A DNA stretch of 19,162 nt from a virus (Duplodnaviria > Heunggongvirae > Uroviricota > Caudoviricetes). A model generated the notes under the pieces. The model did no database searches. It had not been told where the DNA came from and saw nothing but the letters and a program-made list of their open reading frames with translations. Below, piece by piece: positions 3,536 through 15,481 of the stretch. The number at the start of each line of letters is the position of its first letter. The stretch's first letter is position 1. The DNA is taken from positions 1-19,162 of IMG/VR virus record IMGVR_UViG_2734482785_000012. The stretch is one strand, 5' to 3'. A program made the translations under genes and the position numbers.

Positions 3536-4462
3536 TCAGAATGTCAATTTGTCACTGGATTTACCGAATTTGTCAGACATGGCTCCCAGGCCAGCCAGGA
3601 CATCGACCTGTCGCTGTCGCCCACCTCCGGGAGCGGCTGGCTGTTGCCAGAAATCTTCGAAGTGACGATCGGGTCCAAAGAACGTCGCAGCCTGCTTCAC
3701 GAACTGTGTGCCGGTATTTCCTGTAGCACGTACCCAAGCGGCATAACGTCTCACACCATCAAGCATGGTCTCCGGTTTTATTCCCTCCCTGAGACGGGCT
3801 TTCCAGGCTTTGAAGGCTGCCGACTTGGAATTACCACCAGCACGTTTGGGATATTCCTGCCAAGCCTGTTCAAATTCCGGTGAATATTCCTGTCGGGCAG
3901 AGCGCGCTGGTGCAGACGCGTCAGCGGATGCGCCAATATCTTGCGGATCATGTTTTGAATTTACTTGCGGATCATGTTTTAAACCTTGTGGATCTGGGGC
4001 CAGATTCTGAAGGGTCAAAACCGTTTTTTTGCCAGAATCTGAAGGGTCAAACACACCTGAACATTCAGATTCTGACGGGTCAAATTTTGAAGGTTCAGAT
4101 TCTGACGGGTCACGTAATACTGAAAGTCTGCGTTGCTGTTTCAGTTCAGCGACCTTATCCCGCTCCGTTCTGGCAAGCTGCTCAAGCCGATCAGCATTCA
4201 GATGATAAAGATTGGACGTATTACGATTACCTTTGCGACGTGACTGACGCGTCAGCCAGCCATCAGCCTCCAGCTCTGAAATTGCCGTTCTTACTGTGCT
4301 TTCTCCCAACCCAAGCTGTCGGCATATTGTTTCAACACCGGGATAACACACCCCGTCATCATTCGAATAATCAGCCAGACGCGCCATGATCATCAGCTTT
4401 GCACCTTTGACTCCATACGCGGCACATGCATCCCAGACGTTACCGAGAATTTTGCTACTCAC
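3536..4462 (-). CDS. Replication initiator (lambda O-like position) with N-terminal helix-turn-helix and internal repeats
   Basis: 308-aa ORF with GTG start preceded by GGGAGG. N-terminus is HTH-like (GESTVRTAISELEADGWL). The central region has peptide repeats (DPSESEPSKFDPSESECSGVFDPSDSG; KHDPQVNSKHDPQD) encoded by the DNA iterons. Sits immediately upstream of the loader and helicase. Confidence 0.65.
   Translation of the reverse strand: MSSKILGNVWDACAAYGVKGAKLMIMARLADYSNDDGVCYPGVETICRQLGLGESTVRTAISELEADGWLTRQSRRKGNRNTSNLYHLNADRLEQLARTERDKVAELKQQRRLSVLRDPSESEPSKFDPSESECSGVFDPSDSGKKTVLTLQNLAPDPQGLKHDPQVNSKHDPQDIGASADASAPARSARQEYSPEFEQAWQEYPKRAGGNSKSAAFKAWKARLREGIKPETMLDGVRRYAAWVRATGNTGTQFVKQAATFFGPDRHFEDFWQQPAAPGGGRQRQVDVLAGLGAMSDKFGKSSDKLTF
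3941..4113. repeat. Putative phage origin of replication: iterons inside the initiator gene
   Basis: Four copies of cagaWtctgaMgggtca at 4001-4018, 4033-4050, 4066-4083 and 4096-4113 (spacing 30-33 bp), each containing the palindromic tcaga/tctga. Upstream are two copies of ttgcggatcatgtttt (3941-3956, 3965-3980) plus a degenerate third (3986-4001). Confidence 0.6.
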
Positions 4463-4682: not shown

Positions 4683-4873
4683 GGACGCACCTCCGCCGTA
4701 GTTACGTATTTAACCGGGCTACCTTTCATTGAGATGGTTTCACACATCTCTGCCGCTTTGCGTTCCGCCGTTTTTCTGGATTTATAGCGGCGGTGCCAGA
4801 CAGATGTATCTGTGCGAACTGATACATCGTTTCTGTATTCCGTTGTGGAAATAATAATTTCGTAACTAATCAT
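4679..4873 (-). CDS. Hypothetical small protein (64 aa)
   Basis: ATG at 4873..4871 preceded by GGGAGG, with near-identical start context to the next gene (tcATGgacgcRcctcc). The track began at an upstream ATG at 4888 that lacks an SD. Confidence 0.4.
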   Translation of the reverse strand: MISYEIIISTTEYRNDVSVRTDTSVWHRRYKSRKTAERKAAEMCETISMKGSPVKYVTTAEVRP

Positions 4874-5232
4874 GGACGCGCCTCCCATTGATTACGGCGG
4901 AAAGCGGTATGACTGAGGCTGTTTTCTGCCTCATGGAATGCTTCAATGCAGCTCTCGTAGTACCGCATTGTGCGCAGACTTAACCCAAGCTGAAGCATCA
5001 TCAGGCCATCAAGGGTGATGTAATAACCACGCAGAGAATCACCATAGATGTGATAAGTGCACGGTATGAAATTGCGGGTAAAAAACTCGCGCGAGCAGTT
5101 CAGATACTCGATTTTGTCGACGATGTTCTGGTGCATGCGCTTAAAGTGGCAGGCAACATGCAGGGAGAAAATAACAGCTTTGCAGTTGACGACTTCGATT
5201 TTGAGGAATGGGGAAGTTGGGACTGTAGCCAT
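4870..5232 (-). CDS. Hypothetical protein (121 aa from the ATG at 5232; the same frame stays open to an ATG at 5532, giving 220 aa)
   Basis: ATG at 5232..5230 is preceded by GGAGG and the codon usage looks coding (TTC, ATC, AAC, GAA). The N-terminal extension 5233-5532 is GC-rich with rare codons, and its start lacks an SD, so the longer model is uncertain. Confidence 0.4.
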   Translation of the reverse strand: MATVPTSPFLKIEVVNCKAVIFSLHVACHFKRMHQNIVDKIEYLNCSREFFTRNFIPCTYHIYGDSLRGYYITLDGLMMLQLGLSLRTMRYYESCIEAFHEAENSLSHTAFRRNQWEARP

Positions 5233-5556
5233 GATGGCAGCCTCCGTATGCAATGGATAACTTCCACCACCGGAGGTTCCAAGCTCGCTGGTGGCGGACT
5301 GAACAGGGTTGGAACGACCGGCGCATACGGAAACCGGCGAGCCTTTCGGCTCCCCTGCCCAGCCCACCATAATTCTGGCGTGCGTGAGCGCGGACGATAA
5401 AAAAGACGCTGGCGCGTCGTATATCGCCGTATGCAATTCCGAGGTTCCAATCCCGGCACCCGCTTTATAAGGTGCGGAGACAGTGTAGCGTCCCGAAATT
5501 GCAGAATCAATATTTAGGCTTGAAACATTCATATGCTTACTGGTATTTTTACTAAC

Positions 5557-5647
5557 GCAAATGTTCTTGGATGTTACTGGCTTACTTCTTTTGTGAAGTT
5601 GCCTTTACTAACGTTGAGCGAGCCGGGTCACTCCCCGGCTTTTTTTC
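5557..5647 (+). ncRNA. Putative short antisense RNA (lambda oop-like arrangement) ending at a plus-strand intrinsic terminator
   Basis: Plus-strand hairpin agccggg-tcactc-cccggct (5621-5640) followed by tttttt (5641-5646); no plus-strand gene ends here. Candidate promoter ttgaaa (5520-5525), 18-bp spacer, tatttt (5544-5549). Predicted RNA of about 90 nt, antisense to the Rha 3' end and the intergenic region. Confidence 0.3.
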
Positions 5648-6395
5648 ACCGCTGCCAACCAATAACCTGAAATAACCCCATTTTCGGGTGATACCAGCGA
5701 GTCCCTCGCGGTTCTACTTCCTCCATAACCCGATAAAAAGCAGCCATAAACGGTTCCACAGCAACAATTGCGCGACGTGACAACAATCCGTCCGGCGTCA
5801 TGAACTCATGTGTGTCTGTAGGAATTTGATAGGCGTTCACCAGATTGCGGCATTTATCATCTGACAAACCGGTTTTCGCTTTCAGTTGGCGATATCCGGC
5901 ATAGCCCTCACGAATGGTGCCCTTTTTGATTTGCTCAACTGTTTCGGCAACGTGGCTGACTTTTTCTTCCACCTGAGTGATCCGTTTCTGCTGACGAACA
6001 GCTTCAAGAGCCATCGCAGCAACCATTTCGATTTCGCTCATTGGTTTACGGATCTGTTCTTCCAGTTCGCGCCAGCGATCTACCAGGCGAGCAGTGAATT
6101 CAGGACAGAGCTGTGCGACGACAATGATGCTGTCGCGCTTACCTTGTTCTCCTTCAAACAGGTAATGCTCATATTGAACTTTAAAACCTAAGTTATTGAT
6201 TCTTTCGGAAACCTCAATTTGAGGAGACCGGACAACGCCACCTTTGGCTAATGTTTCAATAGTGCGTTTCACATTGTCATGACGTTTACCCACCAGCTCT
6301 GCAATTTCAACGCTGGTCATGGATACTTTGCCGTTAAAAATTGCGGTGTTCACTACCATCTCCTTACGGATAAATTCTTTTAAAATTCCGCACAT
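5646..6395 (-). CDS. Phage regulatory protein, Rha family (N-terminal Rha domain plus C-terminal domain of unknown function)
   Basis: Translation contains the Rha-type motif VEIAELVGKRHDNVKRTIETL. True start may be an internal GTG or ATG near 6353-6359, which is preceded by AAGGAG; the ATG at 6395 lacks an SD. Confidence 0.65.
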   Translation of the reverse strand: MCGILKEFIRKEMVVNTAIFNGKVSMTSVEIAELVGKRHDNVKRTIETLAKGGVVRSPQIEVSERINNLGFKVQYEHYLFEGEQGKRDSIIVVAQLCPEFTARLVDRWRELEEQIRKPMSEIEMVAAMALEAVRQQKRITQVEEKVSHVAETVEQIKKGTIREGYAGYRQLKAKTGLSDDKCRNLVNAYQIPTDTHEFMTPDGLLSRRAIVAVEPFMAAFYRVMEEVEPRGTRWYHPKMGLFQVIGWQR

Positions 6396-6472: not shown

Positions 6473-6940
6473 ATGACTTTAAAATCAGTTCACAAGCTGC
6501 TAAAAGAGCATCTTTATACTCTGTATTCGGTTTTGCCTGCGTCCACGAAAGCAATTGAACTTCGAAATCGAACTAGTTGTCGCGCTATTGCTTTAACTTT
6601 TCTTTACCAAGCAATCATGGATTACAAACGCAACCATGCACTGCTAGGCTTATCTTCCCGAGAAACAATCATTCACATGCTTTACGAGGATGCAAAACTT
6701 ACAATTACTGACTTGGAACAAATTCAGCTTTCGCTTGTACTGAAAATTCTTGCTCCCCGTTTTGCGCGAATAGAAGCCAGTGTTTCTCCCGATTTTTCTG
6801 CAATGGTTCAAGACATGACTCAATGGCTTGAAGACAACTCCGAATGGATTTCGAGGTCTCATGAAGCAACTTCAGATCTTCCTGAATTAAAATGGTCAGA
6901 TCTTCCGAACGAGTTGTTTCCACTAACTCTAGGTAAGTAA
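6473..6940 (+). CDS. Hypothetical protein (155 aa)
   Basis: ATG at 6473 preceded by a near-perfect SD, AAAGGAGGT, 7 nt upstream. On the opposite strand to the surrounding early-right operon. Its 3' 236 bp overlap the convergent ORF 6705..7124. Confidence 0.5.
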   Translation: MTLKSVHKLLKEHLYTLYSVLPASTKAIELRNRTSCRAIALTFLYQAIMDYKRNHALLGLSSRETIIHMLYEDAKLTITDLEQIQLSLVLKILAPRFARIEASVSPDFSAMVQDMTQWLEDNSEWISRSHEATSDLPELKWSDLPNELFPLTLGK

Positions 6941-7124
6941 TTTTTTTCGACATATCGTCAAGTACATCTCGTAAACCGTCAGCTAAGGAAGGCAGACGGT
7001 TTACGGCATACCGTAAAGGTCCACCAGAATCCATCTCTTCAGCCGCTTCCGCTAACTCCTTGAGGTAAAGATTTATTTGACGATCAGTCATTCCAGTCGC
7101 ACTAATTTTGATTTTGTTATCCAT
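6705..7124 (-). CDS. Hypothetical protein (139 aa) immediately downstream of cro (cII/YdaT position)
   Basis: ATG at 7124..7122 preceded by GGGAGG. C-terminal part overlaps the plus-strand ORF 6473..6940, so the true 3' end is uncertain. Confidence 0.45.
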   Translation of the reverse strand: MDNKIKISATGMTDRQINLYLKELAEAAEEMDSGGPLRYAVNRLPSLADGLRDVLDDMSKKITYLELVETTRSEDLTILIQEDLKLLHETSKSIRSCLQAIESCLEPLQKNREKHWLLFAQNGEQEFSVQAKAEFVPSQ

Positions 7125-7525: not shown

Positions 7526-8218
7526 ATGACATTTTCAGAACGACTTGATTTAGCTATGCGCAACGCAAAATTTACGCAAGGCAGGCTAGCCAAAGAAGTA
7601 GGTATGGCCCAGTCAAGCGTCAATCAATTACTTAACAAAGCCAACGGCTCTAGGAAAACAGTTGAAATAGCAAAAGTTTTGGGCGTTAACCCGGAATGGC
7701 TCGCATCTGGTGTCGGCCCAATGGAAATCGAGACCTCTGCAGACTCACACCAAATACGTAACATTTCAGAAGACAGAGTTACTGATTCGTATGTCGTGGA
7801 TGTTTTAGACATCAGATACAGTTGCGGACCTGGTAGTTATAACTCTGATTTTCCAGACATTGTCAGATCTATAGCGATAGAACCAGGATACGCATCAAGA
7901 GTTTTTGGCGGCAGACCAGCATCAGCAATCAAAGCAATAAACGCCCACGGCGACAGCATGAAAGGCACAATAAACCCTGAGGACTTGGTGTTTGTTGACG
8001 TATCAGTTCGCTCATTTAATGGCGATGGTATATACGCTTTTACATACTCTGGAACATCGCACATCAAAAGGCTTCAAAAAATCAAAGATACCCTAACAGT
8101 GATCTCAGACAATCCAGCTTACAAAGATTGGGCTATCGAACAAGATGACTTCGAGCAACTTCACATTGACGGAAAAGTAATCGTAAGTTGGCCTATGACG
8201 CTACACCGTTTCGCATAA
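7526..8218 (+). CDS. cI: CI-like prophage repressor (N-terminal HTH, C-terminal LexA/S24 peptidase-like autocleavage domain)
   Basis: 230-aa ORF with SD gagaggagagg upstream. HTH segment QGRLAKEVGMAQSSVNQLLN. C-terminal Ser/Lys dyad motifs GDSM and KRL. Confidence 0.85.
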   Translation: MTFSERLDLAMRNAKFTQGRLAKEVGMAQSSVNQLLNKANGSRKTVEIAKVLGVNPEWLASGVGPMEIETSADSHQIRNISEDRVTDSYVVDVLDIRYSCGPGSYNSDFPDIVRSIAIEPGYASRVFGGRPASAIKAINAHGDSMKGTINPEDLVFVDVSVRSFNGDGIYAFTYSGTSHIKRLQKIKDTLTVISDNPAYKDWAIEQDDFEQLHIDGKVIVSWPMTLHRFA

Positions 8219-8240
8219 GCGATAATTATTTAACACCCCG

Positions 8241-8265
8241 CCCACTCCACGAGTGGGTTTTTTTT
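8241..8265 (+). terminator. Rho-independent terminator after the CI-like gene (possibly bidirectional)
   Basis: Stem cccactc / gagtggg with loop cac, followed by tttttttt (8258-8265) and flanked by an A-run on the other side (8266-8274). Confidence 0.65.
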
Positions 8266-8315: not shown

Positions 8316-8364
8316 CATGACATAAGTATCGAACTCACCAAAACAATTATAGAGGATGAGGAAA

Positions 8365-8775
8365 ATGTCATCGTATATGGGGTTACCAACAAATCAACAC
8401 GATGTTCTTGAGAATATTCAACTCTTAGTAGGGGCTGGAGCACTACTGTATAGCAGCAATAACCCAGAGTTAGTTGAACTTGCCAGCTCCATCCTAGCTG
8501 TAACTCAAAAATATAGCCTCGCTGCGTCGCGTTCATGTAAACAAAATTTAGCTATTAATTCACGGAATCGGATTCGTATCCAACGCGAAGCCTGCGGCTT
8601 AACAACCGCCGAACTCGCCAGGCTGCTCGATCTCGATGAAGAAATCATCATCCAGTGGGAGAGCGGAGAGTATGAACCAACTATCAGTATGCTTATCCCG
8701 CTGGCAAATGTTCTTGGTTGCGACCCGATGTGGCTGTTAACCGGTAAACCAACAGCTGAGGATACTTGCGCATGA
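8365..8775 (+). CDS. Helix-turn-helix (XRE/Cro-C1-type) DNA-binding protein, first gene of the early-left transcript
   Basis: C-terminal HTH region GLTTAELARLLDLDEEIIIQWESGEYEPTISMLIPLANVLGCDPMWLLTG. ATG at 8365; the track started at 8356. Stop overlaps the next start (ATGA). Confidence 0.55.
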   Translation: MSSYMGLPTNQHDVLENIQLLVGAGALLYSSNNPELVELASSILAVTQKYSLAASRSCKQNLAINSRNRIRIQREACGLTTAELARLLDLDEEIIIQWESGEYEPTISMLIPLANVLGCDPMWLLTGKPTAEDTCA

Positions 8776-13796: not shown

Positions 13797-15026
13797 ATGG
13801 CAAAAATCGCTAAGAAGCTCACTGACACTGAAATCAAAAGCACCAAGCCAGCCGATAAAGAAATCAACTTGTTTGACGGTGATGGTCTGATTCTACGAAT
13901 CGCTCCTTTGGCGAAAGGAGGCAAGAAAAATTGGTATTTCAGGTATGCAGTACCAGTGAGCAAGAAAAGAACCAAAATGAGCCTTGGGACATATCCTCAC
14001 CTTACCCTTGCAAGAGCCAGAGCCTTACGTGATGAATATCTCTCCTTTCTGGCAAATGGTGTTGATCCCCAAATCCATAACAACGATAAGGCGAAGGCAT
14101 TAAAGAGTGCTACTGAGCACACTCTCCAAGCCGTAGCGCGGAAATGGTTAGATGAGAAGGTAAAGACATCAGGTATCTCACAAGACCATGCAGCAGACAT
14201 CTGGCGCAGCTTAGAGAGAAATGTCTTTCCCGGTCTGGGTAATGTCCCTATCAATGAGATCCGACCTAAGCTCTTAAAACAACACCTTGATCCTATTGAG
14301 CAACGAGGCGTATTGGAAACTCTACGCCGTATCATTTCACGTCTGAATGAAATCTTCCGGTGGGCAGCTACTGAAGAACTTATTGAGTTCAACCCGGCTG
14401 ACAACCTTGGTCAAAGATTCAGTAAACCAAAAAAGCAAAATATGCCTGCCCTTCCCCCAAGCGAATTGCCAAGGTTTATGGAATCTTTGACGAATGCGTC
14501 AATCCGGTTGGAAACACGTATGCTAATTGAATGGCAATTGTTGACATGGGTTCGTCCGGGTGAAGCCGTTCGCGCAAGGTGGTCTGATATTGATACAACC
14601 AACAGCATTTGGAACATTCCTGCTGATTTCATGAAAATGAAAAAGCTTCACAAAGTTCCTTTGAGTAAAGAAGCTTTGCGCATCCTTGAATTAATGAAAT
14701 CAATAAGTGGGCATAGAGAATGGGTTTTCCCCAGCATAAAAGCGCCTCTTAATCATATGCATGAACAAACAGCCAACGCAGCTATCATCCGAATGGGGTT
14801 CGGAGGCGAGCTTGTAGCTCACGGTATGCGTTCTATTGCACGAACAGCGGCAGAGGAGTCTGGTAAATTCAGAGCTGAAGTTCTTGAGGCAGCGCTTGCC
14901 CACTCGAAAAAAGATGAAATTATCGCAGCATACAATCGTGCAGAATATCTGATAGAGCGACAGAGTTTGATGCAATGGTGGAGTGATTACGTTCAAGCTC
15001 AAAGATCAAATGCTCTGGTAGCCTAA
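13797..15026 (+). CDS. P4-type (IntA/CP4-57-like) tyrosine integrase
   Basis: N-terminus MAKIAKKLTDTEIKSTKPADKEINLFDGDGLILRIAP is typical of P4-family integrases. Catalytic region has R (VRPGEAVRARW), HGMRS and Y (AAYNRAEY). ATG at 13797; the track's longer model starts at 13755. Lies directly downstream of the tmRNA 3'-end core. Confidence 0.85.
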   Translation: MAKIAKKLTDTEIKSTKPADKEINLFDGDGLILRIAPLAKGGKKNWYFRYAVPVSKKRTKMSLGTYPHLTLARARALRDEYLSFLANGVDPQIHNNDKAKALKSATEHTLQAVARKWLDEKVKTSGISQDHAADIWRSLERNVFPGLGNVPINEIRPKLLKQHLDPIEQRGVLETLRRIISRLNEIFRWAATEELIEFNPADNLGQRFSKPKKQNMPALPPSELPRFMESLTNASIRLETRMLIEWQLLTWVRPGEAVRARWSDIDTTNSIWNIPADFMKMKKLHKVPLSKEALRILELMKSISGHREWVFPSIKAPLNHMHEQTANAAIIRMGFGGELVAHGMRSIARTAAEESGKFRAEVLEAALAHSKKDEIIAAYNRAEYLIERQSLMQWWSDYVQAQRSNALVA

Positions 15027-15064
15027 GTATCAGAATAGCTAATATAATCCTGAAGGTAAAGAAA

Positions 15065-15481
15065 ATGGAAACCCTATTCAAAGTTTTTGAAAAATTTAGT
15101 TCCAGACCACTTTTTTTTATTTTTTTCGGACTCTCACTTTGTGAATTTTTTCAGAAACAATCTGTTCTGATGAATCCATCAGCAGATAACATCGCGAAAT
15201 TATTCGCAGCCATGATATTAGTTGTTTTTTTTACTTGGGGATTTGAATGGCTAATCTTCAAGTTCAATGTAAACCTTGAACCTCATGATCAAGGCGATAT
15301 TGGACCAACAATTGGAACGGCTACTTTAGCTGTATACTTAGTTTATGCCTTTCACTTTCTCAGTGAAAATCCTGAAGCATTAAATTTAAAGTTATTAACT
15401 AACTCTGGCTTTATATACAGCACAACTCTATTATTATTCTCATTAGAATGCATGAAGCTTAGAAGACTTAAACAAAAATAA
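15065..15481 (+). CDS. Hypothetical integral membrane protein (138 aa, 3-4 predicted transmembrane helices)
   Basis: AT-rich. Hydrophobic segments PLFFIFFGLSL, LFAAMILVVFFTWGFEWLIF, TIGTATLAVYLVYAFHFL, FIYSTTLLLFSL. Convergent with the receiver-domain gene. Confidence 0.5.
   Translation: METLFKVFEKFSSRPLFFIFFGLSLCEFFQKQSVLMNPSADNIAKLFAAMILVVFFTWGFEWLIFKFNVNLEPHDQGDIGPTIGTATLAVYLVYAFHFLSENPEALNLKLLTNSGFIYSTTLLLFSLECMKLRRLKQK

Follow-up and report, generated by a model that had tools for sequence, protein, structure and literature searches.

Between the rha regulator gene and an IsrK-like RNA module, the early region of a lambdoid Escherichia coli prophage carries a compact plus-strand unit. 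It occupies positions 5514–5647 of the 19,162-nucleotide (nt) stretch analyzed here (IMG/VR record IMGVR_UViG_2734482785_000012; hereafter the window), and we interpret it, with a probability of roughly 45%, as an undescribed cis-antisense small RNA unit, of the kind represented by sar of phage P22 and oop of phage lambda, that would act on early-right transcripts reading through from rha. The unit consists of a promoter-like site, a short variable body, and an intrinsic terminator that ends on the rha stop codon (Table 1). It opposes the early-right operon, which runs on the minus strand in the order cro-like gene, unnamed open reading frame (ORF), Rha/Ant-family regulator, 113-nt gap, 220-amino acid (aa) ORF (5532..4870), and small ORFs, followed distally by genes for a replication initiator, a DnaC-like loader, and a helicase. 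The cro-like gene lies opposite a cI-type repressor gene (7526–8218, plus strand). The closest complete genome found, TUM9812, is 98% identical to the window across 5380–5760. Our comparisons draw on 93 loci collected via the Rha protein, ∼90 viral contigs (IMG/VR) collected via DNA patterns, and 36 metagenome contigs, in which the unit has three alleles only, G1 (that of the window), G2, and G3, plus minor variants.

The terminator pairs GAGCCGGG (5620–5627) with CCCGGCTT (5634–5641) across the loop TCACTC, giving eight base pairs, six of them G-C, and a 6-nt loop. Judged by a G+C-rich stem of 5–12 base pairs (bp), a loop of 3–8 nt, and at least five to six T residues within 0–2 nt, the hairpin and T7 at 5620–5646 on the plus strand form an intrinsic terminator by sequence, the third-ranked among the terminator-like sites of the window, with a folding energy of −14.8 kcal/mol (z = −3.5). 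Read from the minus strand, this hairpin has A7 ahead of it and CGCUCAACGUU behind it and therefore cannot serve as a terminator there. The last T, at 5646, coincides with the first base of the complemented rha stop (5646–5648), and the T-run is 6–8 nt long in all 90 viral contigs. Across alleles the stem varies at 1 of 16 positions and the loop at 4 of 6 (p = 0.009), and the lone stem variant, a C-to-T change, gives a G-U pair on the plus strand only. The hairpin and T-run reported in the initial annotation are thus present as claimed, and we regard the terminator as real and plus strand specific. That annotation had also proposed compensatory changes in related prophages as a check on the hairpin; there are none, and the check cannot discriminate, because apart from the C-to-T variant the stem is invariant.

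About 100 nt upstream, at 5520–5549, lies the promoter-like site TTGAAA-18-TGgTATTTT. With hexamers spaced within the 16–18 bp of sigma-70 promoters, TGn ahead of the −10 hexamer, and matches at 9 of 12 positions, it is of the sigma-70 extended −10 type. The scan recovers the same TTGAAA and TATTTT hexamers that had been put forward earlier as a candidate promoter, and their key positions are conserved between alleles. The third allele, G3, reads TGaTATCTT and so retains TG and T-A-T-x-T-T. When G1 is compared with G3, the −35 hexamer and the TG are unchanged, one of the six −10 positions has changed, and 8 of the 16 other spacer positions differ; change at the key positions (1/14) is therefore rarer than in the spacer (8/16; Fisher p = 0.017). 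The site is a plausible candidate promoter and evolves as a promoter would. It is divergent from the promoter of the IsrK-like RNA, the two −35 hexamers being separated by 9 bp.

Promoter and terminator occur strictly together. In IMG/VR the promoter pattern is found in 88 contigs and the terminator pattern in 91, and these are the same contigs; among the viral contigs, the hairpin always begins 83–94 nt after the −35 hexamer ends. No IMG/VR contig carries one element alone or a gene between the two, an arrangement that argues against the unit being the scar of a lost cargo gene, and the 36 metagenome contigs agree with the viral ones in all these respects. The pair is present in ∼237 of 5,426 complete E. 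coli genomes, so that prophages of this type are found in ∼4% of them. Carriers include O157:H- 493/89, O55:H7 (USDA5905, for instance), O145:H28 (such as RM13516), and O111:H8 strains, enterotoxigenic E. coli UMNF18, and several Stx2a-converting phages.

Conservation is uneven along the unit. In a sliding comparison of the window with G2 and G3, identity is 97–100% over the last 500 bp of rha and 88–97% over the IsrK promoter, and falls to 47–68% within 5528–5625. Promoter and terminator are the same in G1 and G2, which differ only from approximately +1 of the predicted RNA onward. Flank-anchored scans of the viral and metagenome contigs gave no allele beyond the same three. This pattern fits a plus-strand transcription unit in which constrained control elements enclose a body that exists as distinct, old alleles, and promoter and terminator together form a compact, autonomous, conserved unit.

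The boundaries of the unit point in the same direction. Homology between the IsrK module and other E. coli prophages ends just past the −35 hexamer of isrK, at ∼5511–5513, and beyond this point other prophages carry either a minus-strand DUF4222 gene that abuts the hexamer or a plus-strand RelE/ParE–helix-turn-helix (HTH) cassette. Because homology stops at the isrK −35 hexamer and other cassettes occupy the same site, 5514–5647 is a separate mosaic module with its own promoter-like site and terminator. It has the form that would be expected of an independently transcribed insert.

Table 1. Features of the rha–IsrK spacer and its neighbors (window coordinates)
Feature	Position	Strand	Basis or remark
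-35 hexamer TTGAAA	5520..5525	+	Promoter scan; same in all alleles but one rare TTGGAA variant
Extended -10 element: TG 5541-5542, one base, TATTTT 5544-5549	5541..5549	+	Sequence and scan
Predicted non-coding RNA, ∼85-92 nt	5556..5646	+	Inferred from promoter and terminator
Conserved 10-nt block GTTCTTGGAT, 5′ end of predicted RNA	5563..5572	+	Common to all three alleles
Hypervariable island (predicted RNA body)	5548..5612	.	Alleles 63-68% identical, with indels; flanks 93-100%
Direct repeat GCTTACT...TTTACTAACG	5535-5557 and 5580-5613	.	Specific to allele G1
Allele-specific internal stem-loop GGC..ACTTC-TTTTGT-GAAGT.GCC	5579..5603	.	Window allele; different hairpins at same place in other alleles
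Intrinsic terminator: stem 5620-5627/5634-5641, loop 5628-5633, T7 5640-5646	5620..5646	+	Sequence, terminator scan, folding
rha stop codon TGA	5648..5646	-	Sequence
Rha/Ant-family regulator gene, early-right operon	5646..6395	-	Pfam Phage_pRha; PHROG phrog_63 (anti-repressor Ant); ORF list
IsrK promoter: -35 TTGATT 5510..5505, 17-nt spacer, -10 TACACT 5487..5482, start 5475	5482..5510	-	Sequence and 5′ end of Rfam isrK match
IsrK-like small RNA with own terminator	5399..5475	-	Rfam RF01394, 59 bits (gathering score 50); terminator scan
C4-type antisense RNA (STnc1160-like)	5287..5374	-	Rfam RF01695, 83 bits (gathering score 45)
AnrP-like small Rha-domain protein, 120 aa, possible start 5232, downstream of C4	4870..5232	-	Pfam Phage_pRha; PHROG phrog_995

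The predicted RNA is placed by taking its start as 6–8 nt past the −10 element and its end as within the T-run. As a 92-nt molecule it would fold at −31.4 kcal/mol (z = −4.97), mostly through the terminator and the allele-specific hairpin. The internal hairpins are GGC..ACTTC/GAAGT..GCC in G1, GGC.CTGC/GCAG..GCC in G2, and GGAGCCGTTT/AAACAGCTCC in G3, so that the hairpin is replaced whole from one allele to the next and not by stepwise compensatory change. No ORF is conserved in the predicted RNA, the alleles being separated by indels of 6, 4, and 1 nt. We considered a small protein and rejected it: a 45-aa plus-strand ORF (5533–5670) starts upstream of the −10 element and its frame is broken by those indels elsewhere, and the frames that open at other ATGs run through the terminator. 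The direct repeat described in the initial annotation is genuine, with GCTTACT at 5535–5541 and 5580–5586 and TTTACTAACG at 5548–5557 and 5604–5613, but it is confined to one of the three alleles. A separate direct match of 14 nt, GCAAATGTTCTTGG, joins 5557–5570, at the 5′ end of the predicted RNA, to 8704–8717 in the 3′ part of a plus-strand HTH gene (8356–8775); it too is specific to G1, and by our own estimate ∼0.02 such matches are expected by chance.

The RNA had been described as antisense to the 3′ end of rha and to the 5′ untranslated region of the next gene. The first of these holds only at the stop codon (5646–5648), with no wider contact. The second does not apply: the neighbor is an IsrK-C4-AnrP-like RNA/protein module whose transcription starts at 5475, outside the predicted RNA. 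Since 5556–5646 does not overlap transcripts from the IsrK promoter, the only transcripts complementary to the predicted RNA would be early-right ones that continue past the end of rha. The terminator scan found no minus-strand terminator in the rha–IsrK spacer, which makes read-through from the early-right promoter (PR) plausible.

We favor, tentatively, a model in which the extended −10 sigma-70 promoter at 5520–5549, placed back-to-back with that of isrK, directs RNA synthesis from about 5556, and the strong intrinsic terminator, its U-run ending on the rha stop, releases an RNA of ∼85–92 nt that codes for no protein. This RNA would be fully complementary to the ∼90-nt spacer of PR transcripts reading from rha into the IsrK module. 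It would most likely act as a cis-antisense RNA, like P22 sar and lambda oop, pairing with the spacer and leading to cleavage of the duplex or to transcriptional interference. Such pairing would reduce or uncouple the expression from PR of the antirepressor module and replication genes that lie downstream, and the terminator would also stop antisense transcription from entering rha. The production of the RNA, its start site, its target, and its effect are in each case predictions from the DNA. If the RNA is real, it would be a third RNA player, beside IsrK and C4, in the antirepressor control region.

A bolder form of this model, which we consider improbable, is RNA-based, allele-specific immunity or exclusion. 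A constitutive prophage RNA would pair with the early-right transcript of an incoming or induced phage of the same allele within the rha–IsrK spacer, and that transcript would be cut or stalled ahead of the antirepressor and replication genes. If this were so, selection for escape would keep three old alleles (63–68% identical) between stretches of DNA that are 93–100% identical, much as P1 and P7 are set apart by their c4 sequences, and the unit could modulate the induction of toxin phages, because it is present in Stx2a-converting phages. The hypervariable body with its three alleles offers a simple test of immunity-like specificity in phage antisense RNAs.

Several observations weigh against a functional antisense RNA. 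The window holds 32 promoter matches of this grade, compared with 37.5 ± 7.1 in shuffled sequences, and the promoter match by itself is no better than chance. The terminator lies inside a block, shared with the 3′ end of rha, that is 97–100% identical between alleles, and part of its conservation is therefore shared ancestry. Beyond the rha stop, 5556–5646 contains no supported ribosome-binding site, start codon, or coding sequence, so that a sar-like block of translation is ruled out in the window. No compensatory base change was found in any helix across the alleles compared, and the small number of alleles (n = 3) gives low statistical power. Neither literature searches by topic, nor full-text searches by sequence, nor a 2025 review of phage small RNAs (PMC12197685) yielded a description or transcript of the unit.

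Part of this evidence suits an account in which the RNA is functionless. An AT-rich spacer beside the isrK promoter would fire on the plus strand, or pervasive antisense transcription would enter from the left, and the terminator would only keep antisense transcription out of rha and the plus-strand ORF at 6473. The terminator is indeed the best-supported element, the spacer has 36% G+C compared with 43.5% for the window, the body is hypervariable with inconsistent plus-strand structure, and no target in trans or in cis beyond the spacer was found within the window. We nevertheless judge such a by-product or insulator unlikely. Across alleles the promoter spacer drifts but the key positions do not, all alleles share a 10-nt block at the RNA's 5′ end, and three distinct old alleles between near-identical flanks are hard to obtain by relaxed constraint alone.

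The folding of the body bears on a different possibility, namely that the hairpins act in the minus-strand early-right transcript and the plus-strand T-run is incidental. They might, for example, stabilize the 3′ end of rha mRNA after processing, serve as an RNase III site, or signal pausing or attenuation before transcription reaches the IsrK module. Without the terminator, the plus and minus strands of the body have folding z scores of −2.7 and −3.4 in G1, −0.8 and −0.7 in G2, and −0.9 and −3.7 in G3; the plus strand thus folds better than shuffled sequences in G1 only, which also counts against the antisense RNA. On the plus strand the G3 internal hairpin contains a C-A mismatch; on the minus strand a U-G pair occupies that place and the 10-bp stem is continuous. 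Two G3 variants retain pairing on the minus strand only. Conversely, three variants of G1, an A-to-G change in the inner stem and C-to-T changes in the outer stem and the terminator, lose minus-strand pairing and retain wobble pairs on the plus strand. The wobble and mismatch evidence is therefore mixed, and the strand cannot be told from the folding of the body. Hairpins on both strands are to be expected if an antisense RNA and its target both carry them, so minus-strand structure is compatible with the antisense model, and a role on the sense strand or in the DNA fits equally. We consider a sense-strand element rather improbable: every copy has a T-run of 6–8 nt, which has no role on the minus strand, where A7 stands ahead of the hairpin, and, taken over its full 185 nt, the minus-strand spacer shows no unusual degree of structure (z = −1.4).

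Slightly more doubtful again is a trans-acting small RNA of the Hfq type, carried as moron cargo, which would use its conserved 5′ end, GUUCUUGGAU, to bind mRNAs encoded elsewhere in the host or phage and for which pairing with the spacer would be irrelevant. The order of parts is typical of such RNAs, with a conserved 5′ block, an internal hairpin, an A/U-rich stretch, and a terminator with a U7–8 tail. The autonomous promoter and terminator are moron-like, and the equivalent site elsewhere holds an independently transcribed toxin-antitoxin cassette. Yet the conserved block GTTCTTGGAT has no complementary site beyond chance in a search of the window, shuffled sequence pairs with IsrK, C4, or the anrP leader as well as the plus-strand RNA does, and a hypervariable body would be unusual for an RNA with a host target.

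Control at the level of DNA, in which a regulator of the isrK promoter, specific to the allele, would bind the variable patch and its repeats and the hairpins would be palindromic operators, would suit the position of the patch directly upstream of that promoter, the mixed strand evidence, and a 7-mer and 10-mer (GCTTACT...TTTACTAACG) repeated within 80 bp, far beyond chance, but is very improbable, as the repeat is missing in G2 and G3, the patch alleles co-segregate neither with the hypervariable DNA-binding segment of the adjacent Rha (aa 37–83), with which they reassort freely, nor with the C4/IsrK specificity alleles, no operator-like word is shared with the cI–cro region beyond chance, and the T-run and conserved promoter elements are left unexplained. 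The free reassortment with the Rha segment leads us to reject the patch as a cognate operator of Rha. Co-evolution of the body with the C4/IsrK specificity loops is likewise rejected. A search by eye for nut-like boxA/boxB, LexA, or cII boxes on either strand gave only weak resemblances (CGCTCAAC versus CGCTCTTA).

The module downstream of the spacer has the isrK-orf45/STnc1160-anrP arrangement of Gifsy-1 (PMC4825925). The minus-strand ORF at 4870–5532, which RefSeq names either "ash family protein" or "Rha family phage regulatory protein," overlies both the IsrK-like and the C4-type RNA, and its Pfam Phage_ASH match (aa 16–107) coincides with the two. The local annotation is corrected accordingly: the "ash family protein" region holds two Rfam RNA genes. 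Each of the 77 distinct alleles examined keeps this ORF open and in the frame of the Rha-domain part downstream, with indels in multiples of three, and for this reason the ORF may be partly translated, like orf45 over STnc1160 in Gifsy-1. The C4/IsrK region (5233–5475, minus strand), compared with loci L017–L186, has many alleles, in which the loops change in matched sets: GGAGGTTC with GGTTGGAAC, GGAGCTGC with GGTTCGCAG, and GGAAACGC with GGTTGGCGT. These matched changes look like specificity switching of the P1/P7 type, and the C4/IsrK alleles reassort freely with neighboring modules. Six bases between the isrK −10 element and its start (5476–5481) are highly variable among otherwise identical sequences, the variants on the plus strand being GGAGAC, AGAGAC, CTGAAC, CAGAAC, TGGAAC, AGGGAC, and TTGGAC. 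In E. coli A34 (locus L188, 1250–2000), the site immediately upstream of the isrK promoter is taken not by the small RNA unit but by a plus-strand cassette of a RelE/ParE toxin and an HTH antitoxin.

On the other side of the spacer, rha itself contains a second hypervariable island. It covers aa 37–83 (window 6145–6285), inside the winged-helix domain, and has at least eight alleles between flanks that are ∼97% identical; these alleles reassort independently of the sequence downstream of rha. The initial annotation placed all credible genes on the minus strand, which is not entirely accurate: the plus strand holds the cI gene, a terminator at 8240–8258, and a 155-aa ORF at 6473–6940. This ORF lies between rha and the cro-like gene and has a strong ribosome-binding site, AAGGAGG, 7 nt before its ATG. 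It has no family match, and a related prophage carries a different plus-strand gene at the same place. It is overlapped by a 139-aa minus-strand ORF (6705–7124), which also possesses a good ribosome-binding site and matches PHROG phrog_37051 weakly. The hairpin at 8240–8258 is strong and, standing 22 nt past the cI-type repressor gene, is probably the cI terminator. Another strong plus-strand terminator-like hairpin (572–589) lies near the left end of the window without an assigned gene.

The unit belongs to no known RNA family that we could find. A scan of the plus strand of 5520–5647 against Rfam 15 gave no family, the sole match being a spurious one to Vault (E = 1.3, 16 bits compared with a gathering score of 34), and at gathering thresholds the scan returned only isrK and C4, both on the minus strand. 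The initial annotation called the unit oop-like. Lambda OOP is a 77-nt RNA with its own promoter and terminator; it opposes the early-right operon and is encoded where a regulatory gene gives way to the genes for replication. At the sequence level this layout is indeed shared, with a short RNA unit whose own promoter-like site and terminator oppose the PR operon between regulatory and replication genes, but there is no relationship: local alignment scores 16, compared with 13.5 ± 2.2 for shuffled sequences (p = 0.17), and only the generic terminator aligns. The neighbors also differ, being cII and O in lambda and rha and the IsrK module here. OOP overlaps ∼50 nt of the 3′ part of the cII coding sequence, as deduced from the position of the oop sequence within the cII coordinates, whereas the predicted RNA overlaps only a stop codon. 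The action that we propose, pairing with PR transcripts, can be likened to the proposed action of OOP, pairing and cleavage by RNase III (PMC12197685).

Other prophage RNAs share the neighborhood or the mode of action. The c4 RNAs of P1 and P7, the CI RNA of P4, and IsrK/STnc1160 of Gifsy-1 likewise provide RNA control of an antirepressor and have allelic specificity regions. In contrast to these, the present unit is on the other strand, in a separate mosaic module where the neighboring module ends at its own −35 hexamer; its alleles reassort freely with those of C4/IsrK, and its plus strand has no Rfam match. A precedent for RNA-based exclusion is STnc6030 of BTP1, a prophage antisense RNA with its own promoter that is directed against a lytic operon and gives superinfection exclusion (PMC7067206). 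That RNA, however, comes from the late region, is considerably longer, and has an unrelated sequence, and its expression and function have been shown, whereas ours is a prediction.

The layout is closest to that of P22 sar. In the annotation of the P22 immI region the arc stop codon is at 15020–15022, sar at 15090..15021, and the sar promoter at 15125..15097, inside ant. The 3′ end of sar thus overlaps the arc stop by 2 nt, much as the T-run of our unit ends at 5646 on the rha stop. In both cases the RNA (68–70 nt for sar) spans an intercistronic region, against an operon with an antirepressor unit and upstream of that unit, and has a 5′ hairpin followed by a terminator hairpin. The sequences are unrelated (local alignment 15, compared with 15.7 ± 2.4 for shuffled sequences). 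Moreover, sar covers the ribosome-binding site of the antirepressor, with its promoter in the first codons of ant, and blocks translation initiation; the predicted RNA covers no such site, and this mode cannot apply in the window, where the IsrK RNA comes next downstream and is transcribed from a promoter of its own that the predicted RNA does not cover.

A fuller version of the sar layout may exist at phiP27-type loci (L187, phiP27, 3585–3700; also L017, L018, L060, and L074), to whose rha–ant junction the unit has no homology. There, an unrelated reverse hairpin, GGCCGG-N8-CCGGCC, with a T-rich tail directly follows the rha stop. Next, with its ribosome-binding site and GTG, comes an Ant gene (PHROG phrog_130), whose first codons contain, on the antisense strand, the promoter-like TTGATT-18-TGaTATTGT. 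This junction would predict an RNA of ∼60 nt over the ant ribosome-binding site, in the full sar layout but with unrelated sequence, and we offer it as a lead rather than a finding. For the rha–IsrK spacer, the RNA, if real, would provide a second, unrelated example of the layout known from P22 sar.

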